Below are positions 53,201 to 61,993 of a stretch of 64,000 nucleotides of DNA, piece by piece. The stretch lies in assembly GCF_054482525.1 (NCBI RefSeq), contig NZ_CM137006.1; one strand, written 5' to 3'. A model generated the notes under the pieces. That model made no database searches and had not been told where the DNA came from. It saw only the letters and a program-made list of their open reading frames with translations. Position numbers and translations under genes: made by a program. Numbering within the stretch: position 1 is the first letter of the stretch; each line of letters starts with the position of its first letter.

Positions 53201-53338
53201 CGTGTAATGGCTGCATGAAATAAACAATAAAATATAAATAACATTATCAGCCTGCCGACGGCTTGAAGAGAGTCACAGTATCTTGTGCAACATTATTGGA
53301 AAGCGTGAGGGGCGAGGTAGCGAAGCGGAAAAATGTTA

Positions 53339-53443
53339 AAAAAAAGCCCATCGTGGGAGATGGGCAAAGACTACACACAGCAATTCGTTGTTTCACTCAG
53401 GGGATTTAAGTCATTGATTGATTTATGGGTATGCGGTTTTTCG
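53339..53443 (-). ncRNA. rprA: sRNA RprA (3' ~69 nt canonical, 5' end divergent)
   Basis: Minus strand 53407->53339 reads AAAUCCCCUGAGUGAAACAACGAAUUGCUGUGUGUAGUCUUUGCCCAUCUCCCACGAUGGGCUUUUUUU (rpoS-pairing region plus terminator); the 5' end coordinate is extrapolated from the expected length. Confidence 0.7.
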
Positions 53444-53472
53444 GCATAAACCAAATTAAGCAAGGCTTGAAA

Positions 53473-54054
53473 ATGGACACACAAATTGCACACATATCGC
53501 ACACAAATAAAAAGGGGTATGTATGGCGCAAGCGTTATGAAAAACGCACGATTGAAATCATCCTACGCACCCGTGATAAATCAATTGCCATAAAAAGAGC
53601 GGCATCAATAACAATTCGCTATATGGAATTAAAATCACTTGACGTTCCATTTAAAGCAATGCTGGAAATGTTAAAAAAGTTTCGTGATGGTCTGATTACG
53701 TCACATGACATTGAGCGCTTAAGGTCGATTGCGATAGCTTCACAGGAAGCTCCACACGCCGCTGTAACCGCTTCGCCTATACAAAGTGTTGGCTATGATG
53801 TCAAAACCGCTCAGAAAGCCGCACAGGGGCATTCCCTTGGCGATGCTCAAAAAGTGTACTTTGGCGCCAACACCGAATGGAAAGAAAAAACCATCAAGGC
53901 TTATTCTGGTTGTATCGACCGCTTTATTTTATGGTGCGCTAATAAAAATATTCATACCGTGGAAGAAATAACGAAAGAGCATGTGATTTCATTTAAATCC
54001 AGCATGGATGAAGAAAAATTAGCCTCCATGACTAAATTTCGCATAATAATATGA
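53473..54054 (+). pseudogene. Tyrosine-recombinase (integrase)-like N-terminal fragment; catalytic domain absent
   Basis: ORF ends after a SAM-like core-binding segment (TIKAYSGCIDRFILWCANKNIHTVEEITKEHVISFKSSMDEEKLASMT); no downstream RHRY catalytic domain; start uncertain (53425/53473). Confidence 0.4.
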
Positions 54055-54362
54055 TTCGGGTTAGCATAACCAATACTTTTATTAAAGCCTATGTATGCAC
54101 CAATTTCTTTATACTTTAACTTAGTGAAATCTGAAATAATACTCAGTGGCTGCAATACGTTATGTCCATTGTGCGCCCCTTCATTAGCGCAAAATCCTGT
54201 ATTTGCAAACTGACCTTTATCACGCCAGATGAATCTATCAACGCCGCCACATACAGGACATGGTGTATGTTCATTTGGTTTAATATCAATTCCAAAATCA
54301 TTCATATGCACCAATGGATTCTTTTTAATATAATTATTCAAATCAGTAAAGAAATTAGCCAT
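53952..54362 (-). pseudogene. Primase N-terminal zinc-ribbon fragment (P4-alpha/T7-gp4-type CPxCGG..C), truncated
   Basis: HTPCPVCGGVDRFIWRDKGQFANTGFCANEGAH zinc-ribbon signature; ORF stops after about 135 aa and overlaps the integrase fragment on the opposite strand. Confidence 0.45.
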
Positions 54363-54681
54363 TATATTTGCTCCCGTATCGCCTTGCTGGATGCTTTGCA
54401 AAGAAATCAACGATATCTTGTTTGCGATACCAGATATAACCGTCTAATTCATGATGAATTTCTTGCGGAAATTCTTTAGGGTTAAAGCGTTTGGCGGCAT
54501 AAAACATTGGTTTAGTAACACCAGATAAAGCAATTGCATCATTGCCACACACAAGCCCTGTAAGTTGCACTTTCTGCGATTGTTCTTTTATCTGTGCCGC
54601 GATTAGCCTTTTATTCTCATTAACGTATTTTTCAATCTGTAGCTTACGCATTTTTTCGCGCATGTAATTTATATCGGTCAT
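54355..54681 (-). CDS. AlpA/excisionase-like DNA-binding protein
   Basis: 108-aa ORF; C-terminal segment TKPMFYAAKRFNPKEFPQEIHHELDGYIWYRKQDIVDFF resembles AlpA-family HTH. Confidence 0.5.
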   Translation of the reverse strand: MTDINYMREKMRKLQIEKYVNENKRLIAAQIKEQSQKVQLTGLVCGNDAIALSGVTKPMFYAAKRFNPKEFPQEIHHELDGYIWYRKQDIVDFFAKHPARRYGSKYNG

Positions 54682-54697
54682 TTTAGTATCCTATATA

Positions 54698-56200
54698 TTA
54701 AGTCATTATCTGTGCTGGTGGGGTAATGATATGAATTATCCCTCGATTATTCATAATGAATCTACATCGTTCAAGCCCTGTAATTGCTCGCTTTATATTA
54801 TTTGGCTGCATTTTATACTCAGTTTTTAATGCCTTCGTTAAATCGGATTCATGTACACAGCCATCAGCACTAAATTCCATTAACTGTATTATCATTTCTA
54901 AAACTCGTTCTTGTGCTGGTGCATTTTTCTTTTTTAACTCGCTCATATATGAGTCGTAAGCGAGAGTATTATTACGCGCAGCATTTTGAGTAAAATTAAC
55001 TCCTGCTTCATATGATTCTGCATTTACAGCGTTTTGCATTAATTGCTTATTTTGCTGTTGCGTTGTTAGTGGTTGCCGCTGTTGCGTGTGCATTTGCGCA
55101 TAATCATTTATCGGTGATTGCTGCATGATAAATGGTTCATCATTAGCTTGTTTGCGTTCTATTTTTCCTGCTGCAATTACTGGAGTTGGCCTATCAATAA
55201 ATACCAACGTCTTAGTATTGGCGTTTACCTGATAACCTTTTGCATTTTCTTCGGGATAATCGCATAATTCATTATTAATATCATGTAATTCACAGACGGT
55301 AATTCCGTTATCCGCTGTGCATAAATCAAATTGCATCACTGGTAATTTTGCAGCGCTACGGTTTTTTTCGATAGTGAGTGATACGGATAACCCAAAATCA
55401 TTACCCTGCATTTGCTCTAGTTTAATGACTGTATCAGAGTCATTTTTAAGGGTAATGGCTCCTTTCATACCTTTAGCCGCATCTTTGCCGCCGTGGTGAA
55501 CCATCAAGACAAAAGAATTTGTTTCTACTGCAATTCTTTTCAAAATCGAAATCAGCTTACGCATTGCAATAGCATCATTTTCATCAGGATTTTCCATATC
55601 CAAAATGGTTTTTCCATCAATGCTTTTTTTTGTGTAGTATGCCAAAAATGAAGAAAGCGTATCAAAACAAATGATGCCGCCTTTGTTATTGGTGATTTTA
55701 TTTACATCATTTATTATTCGATTCTGTATTTCTTTATCAAATAAGTTTATTTGTGGTGACAAGATGTGCATTCTGTCATTTTTAACGCCACTATTAAACT
55801 TATTAGACCACGCTGTATTTCGATCTTTGATTTCAACGCCTGTTTCACCATCAAAATAAAAAGCATGGCATTCTTTAGCAACTCGCAAACCAGCCCACGG
55901 TTTACCCTGTGCAACTCTGTTTAAAAGAGATAATGCCGCAAATGATTTGCCTGTGTTGGATTCACCATAAAGGAAGCCGACCTGTTTTCGGTTAAATAGA
56001 TTTTCAATTACAGGGCGTAACCGCTTTTCTGATTGCAATTGAATTTCAGCTAATTCAATTGCACACAATTCATCATTTATACCATCATATTCAGACCACT
56101 CACCGTAGTTGGCGGGTGCGTAATAATCAATCGCGAGAGTGTAATAATAATCAGGAATAGCAGACCAATCAATAAACATTCCTGTGCACATATCATTCAC
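54698..56200 (-). CDS. RepA-like/RecA-fold P-loop ATPase (replicative helicase-type) with C-terminal putative winged-helix domain
   Basis: 500-aa ORF; Walker A GESNTGKS, Walker B-like IICFDTLSS, LMVHHGGK; adjacent iteron array. Confidence 0.6.
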   Translation of the reverse strand: MNDMCTGMFIDWSAIPDYYYTLAIDYYAPANYGEWSEYDGINDELCAIELAEIQLQSEKRLRPVIENLFNRKQVGFLYGESNTGKSFAALSLLNRVAQGKPWAGLRVAKECHAFYFDGETGVEIKDRNTAWSNKFNSGVKNDRMHILSPQINLFDKEIQNRIINDVNKITNNKGGIICFDTLSSFLAYYTKKSIDGKTILDMENPDENDAIAMRKLISILKRIAVETNSFVLMVHHGGKDAAKGMKGAITLKNDSDTVIKLEQMQGNDFGLSVSLTIEKNRSAAKLPVMQFDLCTADNGITVCELHDINNELCDYPEENAKGYQVNANTKTLVFIDRPTPVIAAGKIERKQANDEPFIMQQSPINDYAQMHTQQRQPLTTQQQNKQLMQNAVNAESYEAGVNFTQNAARNNTLAYDSYMSELKKKNAPAQERVLEMIIQLMEFSADGCVHESDLTKALKTEYKMQPNNIKRAITGLERCRFIMNNRGIIHIITPPAQIMT

Positions 56201-56247
56201 CGTAATTTGGGTATTTAATTAAGAAAAATTCAATTACTTCTTCTTTT

Positions 56248-56400
56248 TTATATAGATGCTTTGTTTTTTTTGTTTTTATCGCAAGTAACTAAATGCTCTT
56301 TTGGAAATTCTTTAGGGTTAAAACGTTTAGCCATATAAAAAGCGGTTGAGCCAATTTTAGCCAAAAGTTGTGCTTCACGAGGTGTAATTAAGTCGCTCAT
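56248..56400 (-). pseudogene. Second, truncated AlpA-like copy (50 codons)
   Basis: MSDLITPREAQLLAKIGSTAFYMAKRFNPKEFPKE...; DNA about 56305-56340 is an imperfect duplicate of 54473-54510; ends in a poly-T/A tract. Confidence 0.35.
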
Positions 56401-56689
56401 GTAGGGTATCTCTTAGATGTATTCTGAGTGCGGTCATGGTAGGCGAGGGGAGGAATAGCGGCAAGCATTACCGGATATAGTAAGCACTACCAGCTAAAGT
56501 CTAACTAACTGTCAACAGATTGAGGCTAAAACCACTGTATGTAAATTCAATTTTAAAAATTAAAAATCATTCTGGCTTAACTAATTATGCTCAATTTAAA
56601 TTGAATCTGATAATAAAAAGAATCAATAAAATGGATTTAGTGATTTTTAGTTGGACGAAATCGTTCATTTTATGTGCATTGCTCGCTGG

Positions 56690-56925
56690 TGATAATTCAA
56701 CCAATCCATTCAACCTATTCGAATGGGTGGTGAATTTTTGACCGAATTAAATTCACCTGAATATTCACCGAATGATTCACCTGAATCATTCAGCCCTTCA
56801 TTCACCACGAAACCCAGGCGCGGCGGGGCTTACAGGCCGATTCATTCACCTGAATATTCACCTGAATATTCACCTGAATTATTCAACCAAAAATTCACCT
56901 TCATATTCACTCATTCACCTCTCTA
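56690..56925. repeat. Iteron array: at least 9 TTCACC hexamers, including tandem palindromic 12-mers ATTCACCTGAAT
   Basis: TTCACC at 56751, 56763, 56775, 56800, 56844, 56856, 56868, 56893, 56913; three exact tandem 12-mers at 56843-56878. Confidence 0.65.
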
Positions 56926-57236
56926 TAAATAAGCATTGGAATGCTTTTTATAGAGGTTGATGAATGAAGGTCGTTCAAGTGAATGAACTGTGAGTTGGGT
57001 AAACCCCTAGGGGTTGGGGGTGTTGTCGATTTGTGGTAAATTCCTTCTGCCAGCGTGAAAAAGGCGCTGGTGGGGATTTGCAGCCCCAAACAAACAAAAC
57101 CATTGGCAAGGAATTGCCGATGCGCGTGCGCACGTCAGTTATGGCGGTCACGGCGAGGGAGTCGAAAGGCTCGCCAGTTTTGTTTGTTTGCTGGTACTGC
57201 AAACCTCGTCGTGATCGTCACCACGGGGATGCATGT

Positions 57237-57488
57237 ATGCAGGAAACAGACTGGCACAAAGCGGATATTCTTGCCTCTTTAAAGAAAAAGAAAATCAGCA
57301 TGGCGGGATTATCCCGTGAACATGGTTTATCAAGTAGCACGTTGCTAAATGCACTTAGTAGAGAATGGCCTAGAGGCGAATTAATTATTGCTAATGCAAT
57401 TGGTGTGTCACCTCAAGAAATATGGCCTTCTAGGTATTTTGAAAAAGATGGCTCTCCAAAAAATCGTGTGATTCGTAAACCTGTTTAA
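57237..57488 (+). CDS. Ner-like DNA-binding protein (Mu Ner / Nlp family)
   Basis: 83 aa MQETDWHKADILASLKKKKISMAGLSREHGLSSSTLLNALSREWPRGELIIANAIGVSPQEIWPSRY matches the Ner family signature; upstream in-frame extension of track ORF judged non-coding. Confidence 0.7.
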   Translation: MQETDWHKADILASLKKKKISMAGLSREHGLSSSTLLNALSREWPRGELIIANAIGVSPQEIWPSRYFEKDGSPKNRVIRKPV

Positions 57489-57705
57489 ATAAGTCAATGC
57501 GTCTCTGATTAAAAGGGGCGCATTTTTGTTTTTACTGACTTGTTGCAATGTGGGATATGTTGCGCACGTGTGTGCGATAGTTGTTAATTGTTTTTTGTAC
57601 TAGTTAACAAATACGAATTTTCTGAGGGTGCTATTTTGGGTTTTAGCTGCGGCTTCGCCTTGCTGCCCTTCGGGCTGGTGGTGCAAGAAGAATGTTTGAA
57701 AACTT

Positions 57706-57751
57706 CCTTTTCTTTGCTTCACCAGCCCCGTAGGGGCGTGAGCGTAGCGAA
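57706..57751 (+). repeat. 46-bp direct repeat, copy 1 (identical to 61912-61957)
   Basis: ccttttctttgcttcaccagccccgtaggggcgtgagcgtagcgaa; contains hairpin GCCCC-GTA-GGGGC. Confidence 0.85.
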
Positions 57752-57849
57752 CCTAATCACTTTGATTTTGACACATATCGGTTCTATCATTTTCAGGAAA
57801 ATCATCATAGAATTATATAAAACATACGATTTTTAAGGTGAATTTTTAA

Positions 57850-59001
57850 ATGCACGAGAAAGCGCAAACAAAAATAAAAGATACTATTAGAGAAATACTA
57901 ATCACTCCAGCAATCGCTTTTACTGGTCGTGCAGGTCATTTTGATTTTTCATTATATGAAGTTTTAGCAAATGAGCTTAACAAAAGAAAGATAAAGTTTA
58001 AAATTGATAAATTATCATGTTGGATTATTTTTGATGGCGCAAAAAAACATTACTTTCAAGATAAATCAATTACTGACGCACAAGCGATAAATGATTTTGT
58101 GGATACGTTATGTAGTATTTACTGTGAAACACCTATGGATTACTCCATCGATTTTCACTTTAGAAATTTAAAAATCGATATCAACCCGATTGATTATGAG
58201 TTTGTTTCAATTAGAGCGGGTGAGGATATTGGTATTGGTTTGTTCGCTGAAAAAGAAAAGTATGCGATTGCGAGCATTAAAAAGAATGGCTATCTTTCAG
58301 GTGGTTATCCTAGCTCATTTATAAAATCGATTTTGCAAGATTTGAAAATCTTCATTTTTTTGATTAAAAGCATTAATTTGATTAAGACAGGAAAAACCAA
58401 TTTAGCATCCACGTTATTTCAATCGATGTCCGGTCATGCTGACACAATTAAGATTGATTGCGTTAATGTTAAATATCCTTGGATGAATAGCAGTGTCCAT
58501 ATTTCAGAGTCGGTAGGGAAATTTTTACACAACTTTATCTTCAATTATGAATTTGAAGAAGGCTACATTATAGAAAAAATAGATCATTCGCTTCAGCTAA
58601 TGAATGCAATAGTAAAAGATGAGTCAAAAGAAGCCTTGCGTATCAAGGCTGCAATTGATTGGTTGGTGCAATCTGAAATCACTGATGATGAAACCATGTC
58701 TTTTATTCAAATTTGCATGGGGCTTGAATCAATTTTTGGTGATGATGATTATGAGGGTGGCCTAACAAACATACTATCTGATAGATGCGCCTACTTAATA
58801 GGGAATAAAATTAAAGAGAGGAGATTTATAAAGGACACATTTAAAAAAATATATCAAGTTAGGTCAAAGATAGTGCATGGCGTAAGAAATCATTTATCAG
58901 ATGATGAATTATATTTTAGGCATTTAGCATATTCATATTTAGAGCGTTCTATTCTAAAAGAAATTCAAAATTTAGACCTGCAATCCCATCAGGCGACGTG
59001 A
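57850..59001 (+). CDS. Hypothetical 383-aa protein with C-terminal HEPN-like R-x4-H-G motif (candidate Abi-type RNase)
   Basis: Long AT-rich ORF with SD aaggtg 11 nt upstream; RSKIVHG at residues 338-344 (nt 58861-58881) in a helical C-terminal domain. Confidence 0.65.
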   Translation: MHEKAQTKIKDTIREILITPAIAFTGRAGHFDFSLYEVLANELNKRKIKFKIDKLSCWIIFDGAKKHYFQDKSITDAQAINDFVDTLCSIYCETPMDYSIDFHFRNLKIDINPIDYEFVSIRAGEDIGIGLFAEKEKYAIASIKKNGYLSGGYPSSFIKSILQDLKIFIFLIKSINLIKTGKTNLASTLFQSMSGHADTIKIDCVNVKYPWMNSSVHISESVGKFLHNFIFNYEFEEGYIIEKIDHSLQLMNAIVKDESKEALRIKAAIDWLVQSEITDDETMSFIQICMGLESIFGDDDYEGGLTNILSDRCAYLIGNKIKERRFIKDTFKKIYQVRSKIVHGVRNHLSDDELYFRHLAYSYLERSILKEIQNLDLQSHQAT

Positions 59002-59288
59002 AGCTTGTGCGCTTCATTATGGGGCTAGCCGCCATCAGGCAAGGCGATTGCATGTCTTTGCGCTTCGTCGCCTCCTGATGCGTTCTGTGAAGATGTCGAT
59101 CATTTAGTGAGCGCGGCGGATGTTGCTGATGGATAGTGTGGATGCAACTGAACCATACCGCGAAAAGTGGCAGGATTGCGCCGGAATCGTACCGCTAGCA
59201 GGTGTTGAGTGTAAGAAGTAGTGATTGGGTGAAATGAAGATAGAAGGCCGCATAGAGGCATACAACTAGCCTTATGCGGTTGGCTGGT

Positions 59289-59732
59289 TCAGCACTGGTA
59301 AAAGTTGGCGAGGTGTGGAATATGGCTGGTGGTGGTTTCGAAAGCCTTGAGGCGTCCATTTTTATCTTTTTTCAAGTAGAGCATTTTTAGTGCTGGTGGA
59401 AATACTGAATCCATAATTCCATAAACTCCCACATTTTCGTTTTCTTCTTTAAGCATTCCCCAATATTGATAACCATTTAATGCGCTATCATCAATGCCCG
59501 TTCCAACGCGCTTAATGTGGGCAAGATATCGGCCTTTTATCGTAAAGCTAAATGATTCATCACGTTCATTTGTGCAAGTGTAAAATCCATCATCGCTTTC
59601 ATTTATAACTTCAGATGCTTCACGATTTAATGAGTACTTGTCTAAGTTGTTTATGATGTCACTTCGCTGTGCGCATCCAGTCAAATTTAGAATGGTAAAA
59701 ATTAGTACAGAAGATGCAAGATATTTGTTCAT
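59289..59732 (-). CDS. Hypothetical lipoprotein (147 aa)
   Basis: MNKYLASSVLIFTILNLTGC signal peptide plus lipobox; start at internal ATG 59732. Confidence 0.6.
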   Translation of the reverse strand: MNKYLASSVLIFTILNLTGCAQRSDIINNLDKYSLNREASEVINESDDGFYTCTNERDESFSFTIKGRYLAHIKRVGTGIDDSALNGYQYWGMLKEENENVGVYGIMDSVFPPALKMLYLKKDKNGRLKAFETTTSHIPHLANFYQC

Positions 59733-59818
59733 TTTGATTATCCATATGAAAAGCAAGGTACTTAGATTAAATTACCCTGCTTAAGCAGTAATTAGCGGTT
59801 CCGTTAATAGAGGGTAGA

Positions 59819-60178
59819 TTATTTGTTAATTTGTTTTTTAGTGTGTGAGATAAAATTTCTAAGTAAATCTTTTTCAATTACAATTTCACATTTTAGGTTT
59901 TGGCTATCGACCGCATCAATTCTATCAAACCAAAACATTAATTCCTGGCTTGCATCGCATTTACGTTTGAATTTAATTGCCCTGCCGAATTTTTCACTTA
60001 AAGAATCATCATCACATAAAAAATAAATTTTATTATTAATGGTGATTTGAATTAAATATGTCTTCCTCGTTAGGTAATCTAACCTTTCGTTAGCTTTCAG
60101 TAAGTTAGCTTCAGCTTGTTTGATGCGTATAAGAGCATCCTCTTTGCTTAAAGGGGATGTATTGACAGACTTGATCAT
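59819..60178 (-). CDS. Hypothetical protein (119 aa), upstream partner of the lipoprotein gene
   Basis: ORF co-oriented with and 62 bp upstream of the lipoprotein gene; no recognisable family. Confidence 0.5.
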   Translation of the reverse strand: MIKSVNTSPLSKEDALIRIKQAEANLLKANERLDYLTRKTYLIQITINNKIYFLCDDDSLSEKFGRAIKFKRKCDASQELMFWFDRIDAVDSQNLKCEIVIEKDLLRNFISHTKKQINK

Positions 60179-60287
60179 AATTTAATCCTTTGGTTAAGAT
60201 TCATCAAAAATATGCCATAAATAGCCTTGAAGGTTGTGTGGAATACATATTATGATAGCTTCATCTAATCAGCAAGGGGAATAATAG

Positions 60288-60443
60288 ATGCCTTCTAAAC
60301 GTGTTATATGCTCACTTGATGAGCAAGAGTTAGATATTCTCGAAAAATATAAATTACATTATAAAAATATGCATGGCGTAAAATTAAACAGAACGGCAAT
60401 TATCAAAATGTTGATTAGTCGTCTATCAAAAGAAATTCAATAA
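60288..60443 (+). CDS. Small putative ribbon-helix-helix (CopG/Arc-like) regulator, 51 aa
   Basis: MPSKRVICSLDEQELDILEKYKLHYKNMHGVKLNRTAIIKMLISRLSKEIQ: beta-strand then two helices pattern; divergent from the minus-strand pair; below ORF-track cutoff, found by own reading. Confidence 0.45.
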   Translation: MPSKRVICSLDEQELDILEKYKLHYKNMHGVKLNRTAIIKMLISRLSKEIQ

Positions 60444-60495
60444 TAATTCTAATTACCAATTAATTTAAACTTCACATAATTAAAGAGGCAACTCT

Positions 60496-60810
60496 ATGCA
60501 CACTCTTTTTTCTAAATTTAAAAACAGGAAAATTAAAATGTATCAACCACGTTATAAAAGCAGAATGATTGACGATAATGAATATAATCAGGTGCTTCAA
60601 TCGAGAATGCAAAATCTTTTAAATCAATATAATAATGAGGTTTCAAACTTAACCCGCATTGGTGTTACAAATTTGGGTTTCGGCCGATGGGATAATGGAG
60701 AGAGCAAAATCAATAACCACGTTAATAAAGTAAGTGAGACTTTGGAAAAGATGCAATCTACGCAAGCCTTGATTGATGCTCTTGCAAATGAAATTACACA
60801 AACTAATTAA
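60496..60810 (+). CDS. Hypothetical small protein A (104 aa)
   Basis: ORF with SD aaagagg 8 nt upstream; AT-rich. Confidence 0.5.
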   Translation: MHTLFSKFKNRKIKMYQPRYKSRMIDDNEYNQVLQSRMQNLLNQYNNEVSNLTRIGVTNLGFGRWDNGESKINNHVNKVSETLEKMQSTQALIDALANEITQTN

Positions 60811-60894
60811 TCGAATGGGGGATGCTTTAAATGGTAATCGCAATCATGGTTGTAATGTTTTGGGCTTTCCTGATTCTTAAAGAGGAAATGAAAT

Positions 60895-61179
60895 ATGGTT
60901 AAATTTGGAGTGTTTTACCATCATGCATGGGGTGATGGTAAAAAGGAAATCCCGCCACCTGATTTAAATTACATCCGAACCGATCCACATAAAAATAATG
61001 AAATTGCTTTAGATGTTTTTGATTCAAGAATGGACGCACAAAAACGCGCTGATTTACTAAATTCACGCATGGCAAAAAATCAAACTGGTCAGCATTATGT
61101 TGCGCCAACAACGCAAGAAACCAAAACGGCTCAAAAGCGCTTTAAGTTTCCTTGTACTAGCATTTATGGGTGGAAATGA
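60895..61179 (+). CDS. Hypothetical small protein B (94 aa)
   Basis: ORF with SD aagagga; N-terminus KFGVFYHHAWGDGKKEIPPPD resembles that of protein C. Confidence 0.5.
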   Translation: MVKFGVFYHHAWGDGKKEIPPPDLNYIRTDPHKNNEIALDVFDSRMDAQKRADLLNSRMAKNQTGQHYVAPTTQETKTAQKRFKFPCTSIYGWK

Positions 61180-61181
61180 AA

Positions 61182-61556
61182 ATGAGTAAACAATTCGGTG
61201 TTTTCTTTTGGCGAAAAGGTGACGCTATTACCGATATCCCGTCAGATAAAAATGTTGCAAATCGCGGAGTAAAGCCTAAGCGCATTTTTTCAGATTATAT
61301 TGATGGAATGCGATATAAAGATAAAATGAATGCAACAATTCCAGCGGCGCAAAAAGGTAAATATGAATATGTATTAGCGGAAATTGTTGAACCAGACCCG
61401 AACAATACAAAGGTGTTGTTTAAATCTGGAAATTTAACAGAAGCATTAAGGGCGAAGCGACAAACAACCGAACAAATCAACCGAAATAAAATTGATGCAA
61501 TGATTAAAGAAGCCGCACACGATTACCTTTACACTATTACAGGAATGGAAAAATGA
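61182..61556 (+). CDS. Hypothetical small protein C (about 125 aa; start at ATG 61182 or 61176)
   Basis: QFGVFFWRKGDAITDIPSDKN N-terminus paralogous to B; abuts stop of B. Confidence 0.5.
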   Translation: MSKQFGVFFWRKGDAITDIPSDKNVANRGVKPKRIFSDYIDGMRYKDKMNATIPAAQKGKYEYVLAEIVEPDPNNTKVLFKSGNLTEALRAKRQTTEQINRNKIDAMIKEAAHDYLYTITGMEK

Positions 61557-61852
61557 TTATTGACGAGCGATTTATTAAATGGTCAATGGTGCTGGTGGAG
61601 GCCGGAAAGCCATCACCCAGCCTCGCGGGGCTTTATAAAGGAAACACTAAAGGATTAATCTTTTATAAAACACGTGAATTGGCATCAAATGCAGCCACTA
61701 AACGGAATGAGCAATTAGCAGGAACTAAATCAACCAGCCGATTTAAAATCATTAAATTGCATGACGCAGAAGCACAACAGAAACATGATTTTCAGTTAAA
61801 ACAGGAACGCCAGCGCCGCGATGCACGCCATATGCGCCGATTTGGTTTCTAA
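61553..61852 (+). CDS. Hypothetical small protein D (99 aa), basic C-terminus
   Basis: Start ATG overlaps stop of C (ATGA), indicating translational coupling. Confidence 0.5.
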   Translation: MIIDERFIKWSMVLVEAGKPSPSLAGLYKGNTKGLIFYKTRELASNAATKRNEQLAGTKSTSRFKIIKLHDAEAQQKHDFQLKQERQRRDARHMRRFGF

Positions 61853-61911
61853 ATATAACTCAATAACTCAACCAATGGTGATGTTAAAGAATAAGGTGGC
61901 CTTAAATTTCA

Positions 61912-61957
61912 CCTTTTCTTTGCTTCACCAGCCCCGTAGGGGCGTGAGCGTAGCGAA
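61912..61957 (+). repeat. 46-bp direct repeat, copy 2 (identical to 57706-57751)
   Basis: Same 46-mer, 37 bp upstream of the tape-measure-like ORF. Confidence 0.85.
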
Positions 61958-61993
61958 ATAAGTAACATTAATATCAAATCAGAGGTAAATAAA

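Follow-up and report, generated by a model that had tools for sequence, protein, structure and literature searches.

A defective tyrosine-integrase island at the 3' end of the small RNA gene rprA, with a hybrid rprA copy as its probable attachment scar

A hybrid rprA copy beside a truncated integrase gene

We analysed a 64,000-nucleotide stretch of contig NZ_CM137006.1 (assembly GCF_054482525.1), hereafter the window, in which Rfam places a match to the small RNA RprA (RF00034) at 53336-53456 on the minus strand. At 81.4 bits (E 2.3e-9), this copy passes the gathering score of 70, but intact rprA copies in two other carriers, FREC5 and S10, reach 118.8 bits each, and the hybrid copies of those genomes score ~80. 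The covariance alignment flags non-standard pairs in the window copy, confined to the 5' stems. On the minus strand, CATACCCATAAATCAATCAATGACTT occupies 53433-53408 and is followed by AAATCCCCTGAGTG...GGGCTTTTTTTT; across the homology break the letters pass from CCGCATACCCATAAATCAATCAATGACTT to AAATCCCCTGAGTGAAACAACGAATTGCTGTGTGTAGTCTTTGCCCATCTCCCACGATGGGCTTTTTTTT. The 71 nt at 53337-53407 (minus strand) show 100% identity to nt 37-106 of K-12 rprA plus one base (A), confirming the match that the original prediction had drawn below 53407. The foreign letters that it gave in place of the canonical RprA 5' stem-loop are exactly those found, and the AT-rich foreign DNA that it placed above 53407 is indeed there (GC content 30-46% across 53500-64000), with an integrase-like ORF whose N-terminal fragment begins at 53473 on the plus strand. 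In a megablast search of 5,426 complete E. coli genomes, nearly all match from 53407 downwards, through the 3' part of rprA and then ydiL; the sequence above 53407 is common to only 5 genomes and, aligned to K-12, is not a normal rprA allele.

The 11-bp hairpin of the RprA 5' stem-loop (nt 3-30) folds in the native copy and is absent from the hybrid, in which the central pairing region and the Rho-independent terminator are both present (nt 37-106 as in K-12; terminator detected). On the rprA-sense strand, a scan upstream of the hybrid gave no sigma-70-like promoter. Instead of a promoter of its own with an RcsB box upstream, the hybrid is preceded by the P arm of an integrated element and by the integrase gene in antisense orientation, and the native rprA upstream region is present only at the other junction, attL. 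The features of this part of the window are as follows.

53336..53456, minus strand: hybrid 'rprA' of Rfam and PGAP, read here as the attR junction (81.4 bits versus 118.8 for an intact copy; second rprA in RefSeq)
53337..53407, minus strand: 71-bp direct repeat, rprA nt 37-106 plus A; second copy at ~64978-65048, outside the window
53362..53376, minus strand: probable strand-exchange interval, rprA nt 68-82, GTGTAGTCTTTGCCC, from Salmonella, E. ludwigii, FREC5 and L128 variants
53369..53407, minus strand: RprA central pairing region, nt 37 to ~75, predicted from crossover mapping to be element-borne and part of the attP P arm
53408..53472, minus strand: conserved P arm from the core to the integrase start, containing AATCAATGACTTA, from an alignment of 8 elements
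53473..54054, plus strand: tyrosine integrase of 193 aa, reduced to its N-terminal SAM-like domain by deletion of the catalytic domain
53477..53507, minus strand: three direct TTTGTGTGY-type repeats with 11-bp spacing, overlapping the integrase start codon
53952..54362, minus strand: primase fragment, zinc-ribbon part only
54036..54037, no strand: deletion junction, 1,874 bp relative to FREC5 (L001 19714/19715 versus L003 18126/20001)
54698..56179, minus strand: AAA_25 / RepA-like replicative helicase
56751..56911, plus strand: ATTCACCTGAAT iterons (repeat family D1), between the helicase operon and the C4/HTH module
57137..57225, plus strand: C4-type antisense RNA, a P1/P4-type immunity RNA (Rfam C4, 65.8 bits)
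57237..57488, plus strand: Ner/SfsB-like HTH regulator, directly downstream of the C4 RNA
57850..59001, plus strand: 383-aa cargo protein, labelled HEPN domain-containing in RefSeq
61994..63982, plus strand: protein with a lambda-H-like tape-measure C-terminal domain, 662 aa

The 65-bp P arm is nearly invariant in the 8 aligned elements, with integrases that diverge by up to 36%. Within it, AATCAATGACTTA abuts the core and, judged by eye, fits what we take to be the IHF consensus, WATCAANNNNTTR. Two of only three window-wide matches to the TTTGTGTGY-type repeat fall in 53477-53507, and a matching triplet is found in the P' arm at the far end of the element; the repeats are probably arm-type sites of the integrase, and both they and the IHF-like site may act at att. 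The P arm region and rprA also have the 9-mer ATAAATCAA in common, which hints at an ancestor that had taken up a still longer piece of rprA, for instance through imprecise excision, the 5' part of which later decayed. More distant integrases of the clade, which reside at other sites, have similar GTGYAT-type repeats over the integrase start. Elsewhere in the window, the Rfam matches of the core genome (Phe leader at 24684-24808, STnc540 at 28504-28662 and ES036 at 755-797) are ordinary.

The far junction and the position of strand exchange

The far junction lies beyond the window and was read from the near-identical E. coli SCU-102 (NZ_CP051753.1), from which we infer that of the window's strain: between window 33150-64000 and SCU-102, identity is 99.994%, with 2 of 30,851 positions different. 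The gene order in SCU-102 is ydiK, rprA, an 11.6-kb island with the integrase fragment, a second "rprA", which is the window copy and is so labelled by RefSeq, and ydiL; the 71-nt direct repeat flanks the insertion on either side. On the ydiK side (L001 8667-8774), all 106 nt are identical to K-12 rprA, as are the 85 nt upstream so far as aligned, which we take to hold the RcsB-dependent promoter. The displaced 5' part and promoter region that the original prediction had expected at the far end of the element are therefore there, but as part of a complete gene, and its proposal that rprA was left as a promoter-swapped hybrid is not supported. In the window's coordinates, the intact rprA would lie at 64977-65084, ~1 kb past the window end, and so was not visible to a reader of the window alone. 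Every other carrier examined likewise has a complete rprA at the other junction: the target gene is reconstituted at one end. The far-end rprA is the host promoter region and host 5' part joined to a terminator supplied by the element, and since the rebuilt gene in E. coli carriers is wild type, RprA should keep its size and its Rcs control there. The copy in the window is a redundant duplicate, the by-product that such integration always leaves. It is predicted to be silent, and read-through transcription antisense to the integrase gene may pass through it despite the lack of a consensus promoter.

Natural variants locate the exchange. One Salmonella genome keeps the native terminator, GCCCGTCTCCTACGATGGGC, in its ydiL-side attR, an RprA primer in PMC6202311 confirming that this sequence is native, and has GCCCATCTCCCACGGTGGGC in the functional, ydiK-side attL; from nt 83 onwards, attR is therefore host DNA and attL element DNA. 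In E. ludwigii, attL is canonical and attR carries a non-native 17-nt block at nt 51-67; since Enterobacter species representatives are all canonical at these positions, attR nt 51-67 is element DNA. FREC5 has C57T, and the metagenome contig L128 another variant within nt 51-67, each in the attR copy only. Together, these markers put the crossover within nt 68-82, its 5' bound based on three natural variants, and strand exchange most likely takes place there, at the 5' foot of the rprA terminator. The identity block of the SU10-type elements described below starts at nt 76 (TTTGCCC), which could narrow the interval to nt 76-82 if the integrase clade shares its core. With a crossover at nt 68-82, the "RprA seed" at 53369-53407 would be the element's own copy, and host DNA would comprise the terminator only, from 53338 to ~53368. 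The homology break at 53407/53408 thus stands as originally drawn, but the true boundary between host and element most likely falls ~35 nt below it, at 53362-53376.

We observe the repeat, an intact attL rprA, empty sites elsewhere, the deletion in the integrase gene and, across five genera, integrases of this family at rprA; very probably, window 53336-53456 is the attR of a defective 11.6-kb tyrosine-integrase element that entered the 3' end of rprA site-specifically, with rprA rebuilt at attL. The attP of such an element would carry a copy of rprA nt 37-106, and strands would be exchanged near the 5' foot of the terminator, at nt 68-82. The ydiK-proximal attL would then consist of the host promoter region, host rprA from nt 1 to ~75 and the element's terminator, a full and normally regulated rprA; the ydiL-proximal attR, in the window, would consist of the element's P arm, including its own nt 37 to ~75, and the host terminator, a redundant fragment.

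In hosts with a terminator unlike that of the element, such as Salmonella, integration alters three positions of the active RprA terminator. In GCA_017604765.1 (L120 12571-13069), the functional attL rprA has G83A, T89C and A93G relative to the native gene, all three derived from the element.

Gene content and mobility of the element

The 1,874-bp deletion took the catalytic domain of the integrase, a GIY-YIG nuclease gene and most of the primase gene, and it is also present in SCU-102, 19KM1776 and PCN033. The element is consequently immobilised in this lineage: with its integrase truncated, the window copy cannot excise on its own. What had been called a prophage is a degraded, 11.6-kb satellite-like island. 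FREC5 and S10 hold 13.0-kb and 14.5-kb versions between the same two junctions, and here the gene adjoining the junction encodes a full, 401-aa tyrosine integrase (PF00589) with conserved HCYRH and RVY stretches, which we take to be parts of the catalytic R-H-R-Y set. Their other genes encode a GIY-YIG/DUF723 nuclease, a zinc-ribbon/Toprim primase, an AAA_25 or DUF3987 helicase, a C4-type RNA followed by a Ner/SfsB-like HTH regulator, a ~390-aa protein, several small ORFs and a lambda-H-like tape-measure C-terminal protein of 660-740 aa, with a variable cargo slot adjoining attL. Judged by comparative genomics, the family as a whole appears to be mobile. The five metagenome contigs that match are all attR forms of integrated elements; a search of IMG/VR, the phage collection and metagenome contigs for an excised, circular attP found none. 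Neither the integrase protein nor the whole FREC5 element resembles anything among 50,697 deposited phages; the 42-nt sequence from the 3' part of rprA (nt 41-82) was not found in IMG/VR, nor were integrase peptide patterns in GTDB genomes or IMG/VR.

The cluster of ATTCACCTGAAT iterons is probably the replication origin of the element. The loop of the C4 RNA, GTTTTGTTTGTTTG, is perfectly complementary to CAAACAAACAAAAC (57087-57100), 40 nt upstream on the same strand, and the RNA is kept in all relatives; together with the downstream HTH gene it looks like an RNA immunity module of the P1/P4 style. A 46-nt repeat, CCTTTTCTTTGCTTCACCAGCCCCGTAGGGGCGTGAGCGTAGCGAA, stands just upstream of the 383-aa and tape-measure-like genes (57706-57766 and 61912-61972) and is repeated in FREC5 too. 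Pairing of the C4 RNA with this repeat (family D2) was considered and rejected, as the two are not complementary. The 383-aa protein has no match in Pfam, PADLOC or NCBIfam; for the 205-aa and PIN cargo proteins, PADLOC gave no matches and NCBIfam added none. An AlpA/Xis-like identity for the 50-aa and 108-aa paralogues proved unsupported, Pfam returning nothing for the 108-aa protein. PHROG scans of all ORFs matched only tape-measure, repressor, primase, helicase, integrase and endonuclease. A tape-measure-like gene is thus kept in a 12-14.5-kb element without any other recognisable virion gene, which is unusual for a satellite-like island; the protein hints at tail hijacking, and its gene points to a siphovirus as the possible helper.

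The island is like P4-like satellites and Gram-negative PICIs in its size of 12-14.5 kb, its integrase at one end, its variable cargo slot near att, its replication module of primase and helicase with iterons, and its immunity RNA of the C4/CI type, the last a P4-like trait found here at 57137-57225. Unlike P4-like satellites, it has separate genes for primase and helicase and includes the lambda-H-like tape-measure gene, and we detected neither the alpha primase-helicase nor, in the PHROG scans of all ORFs, homologues of the capsid-size genes psu, delta and sid or other capsid-redirection genes. To our knowledge, no helper phage of the rprA element has been described.

Recurrence at rprA and alternative readings

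The integrase family comprises 77 clustered proteins, many without a species name; all species-named members come from Enterobacteriaceae. Related integrases of 49-87% identity sit at rprA in E. coli, Salmonella, Citrobacter, Enterobacter and Klebsiella, carried by 12-14.5-kb satellite-like elements and by SU10-like prophages. By integrase identity, the relatives divide as follows.

64-87% identity: same satellite-like island, in Salmonella, C. freundii, C. portucalensis, E. ludwigii and Phytobacter; adjoins rprA; identity block nt 37-106
49-58% identity: SU10-like (portal/adaptor) prophages, in E. coli and K. aerogenes; at rprA; 31-bp identity block, nt 76-106, terminator only
36-47% identity: other elements and hosts, at other loci; no identity block

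In the last group, an integrase of 47% identity lies next to fnr in K. quasipneumoniae and others of 36-37% lie next to an M32 peptidase gene in Citrobacter and Enterobacter (L011-L013); no Rfam families were found at those junctions.

The rprA site is uninterrupted in 5,405 of 5,423 complete E. coli genomes and interrupted in 18, five of which carry this family, so that empty sites in relatives accompany the 71-bp flanking repeats; among GTDB species representatives (106 loci), only a handful have extra terminator copies. Being almost invariant across genera (~100 species representatives), rprA nt 37-106 offer a dependable target. Phytobacter massiliensis JC163 (L032, L033) has a tandem array of an intact rprA, an 8-kb satellite remnant, a hybrid, 1.8 kb of sequence and an SU10-type terminator copy. 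In Enterobacter asburiae AEB30 (L104), a second terminator copy with a third type of arm follows rprA by 1.4 kb. Klebsiella "plasmids" carrying rprA turned out to be mislabelled pieces of chromosome.

That a foreign element integrated site-specifically within rprA, as originally proposed, is borne out by the repeats, the empty sites and the integrase. Had this split the gene, the strain would be left with only a hybrid sRNA that has a foreign 5' end and promoter, with altered RprA size or Rcs control. The hybrid is the sole copy visible inside the window, and its 5' part and upstream region are foreign, as this account would have it; the complete rprA with native upstream sequence at the other junction of SCU-102, and the complete gene in all other carriers examined, make it very unlikely. 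That the sequence is a lineage-specific rprA allele or an assembly artefact, as an Rfam alignment spanning the full length might suggest, is so improbable that we give it almost no weight: the same junctions recur in five independent complete E. coli genomes, in other genera and in metagenomes, and both nt 37-106 and the 5' stem-loop of rprA are near-invariant in ~100 species representatives.

A different account grants the integration and assigns the element's copy of nt 37-106 a function, as an RprA mimic acting on RpoS, CsgD, NarP or RicI circuits or as a sponge for RprA partners; this copy, which resembles the processed 47-nt RprA and the pairing region at nt 30-70, would then be expressed from the element and be more than a passive part of attP. 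The hybrid does cover the processed form and most of that pairing region, and processed RprA, the last 47 nt, is active alone (PMC9262595). Moreover, rebuilding rprA does not require nt 37-75, but 7 of the 8 elements aligned, with integrases up to 36% divergent, match the host exactly over these positions, and P1-like phage-plasmids carry an independent RprA-like RNA (63 bits). Against this, the hybrid has no promoter-like site upstream, all variants seen (FREC5 C57T, the E. ludwigii block and L128) fall in nt 51-67 of the pairing region itself, and conservation is nearly as high in the P arm next to them, so that either constraint on attP function or conversion between the two 71-bp repeats accounts for the conservation of nt 37-75. 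We consider such a mimic improbable. It is likewise doubtful that the satellite family carries nt 37-106 as an element-encoded sRNA module, or that integrase transcripts reading through attR form a perfect anti-RprA sponge. The former would mean that mobile elements repeatedly borrow the 3' half of RprA to enter the Rcs/RpoS/biofilm/conjugation network, and the latter would link envelope stress to control of the element.

The P1-like phage-plasmids are 88-91 kb long, encode pacA, lpa, a phage repressor and tRNAs, and occur in E. coli and Enterobacter. Their RprA-like RNA lies at L130 5947-6049 (plus strand) in E. coli CH468 plasmid unnamed5 (NZ_JBRBPZ010000006.1) and also in NZ_CP085744.1 and NZ_CP074151.1; its Rfam score, 63.4 bits (E 1.3e-6), falls short of the gathering score, 70. 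With rprA this RNA shares nt 61-92 exactly, and its terminator variant, ACGGTGGGC, is the one that the element supplied to the Salmonella attL copy; the RNA is absent from the deposited phage collection.

Integration into rprA, with the gene rebuilt at attL, is classical in mechanism; the target, the integrase clade and the satellite-like element family are new. Among CC-licensed PMC papers and bioRxiv preprints we found none that names rprA as an attachment site, the only literature trace being the presence of the RprA Rfam model in the set of non-coding RNA targets scanned by Phage_Finder v2.5. P4 integrates at leuX and CP4-57 at ssrA. Integrative elements that target the 3' ends of tRNA or tmRNA genes are the subject of Williams 2002, cited in PMC12540744. 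As in those elements, the integrase is of the tyrosine type and adjoins att, attP brings along the 3' end of an RNA gene, so that one junction regains the whole gene and the other keeps a partial duplicate, the exchange falls close to a stem-loop, and one integrase clade spans different element types. Unlike theirs, the target here is an Hfq-dependent regulatory sRNA gene, and identity continues for ~39 nt on the 5' side of the inferred crossover, so that the element carries a longer piece of the gene than its repair would need. Also comparable are the prophages phiOXC141 in pneumococcal csRNA3 (PMC9764711) and phiEf11 in ffs (PMC12540744), where attB likewise lies inside a small non-coding RNA gene and the incoming element supplies the replacement end. 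At csRNA3, however, the replacement changes the sRNA and its activity (PMC9764711), whereas RprA rebuilt in E. coli carriers is wild type; among rprA carriers, only the Salmonella lysogen, with its three terminator changes, offers a mild analogue of that alteration.

Where carriers are annotated by PGAP and Rfam, rprA appears twice; the second entry marks an att scar, and this strain should not be taken for a promoter mutant of rprA. The natural SNP markers narrow the crossover to 15 nt at the terminator foot. An uncharacterised, small clade of integrases, limited to Enterobacteriaceae as far as its members carry species names, serves satellite-like islands and SU10-like prophages alike, and rprA, one of the most conserved enterobacterial sRNA genes, joins the short list of regulatory-RNA attachment sites.
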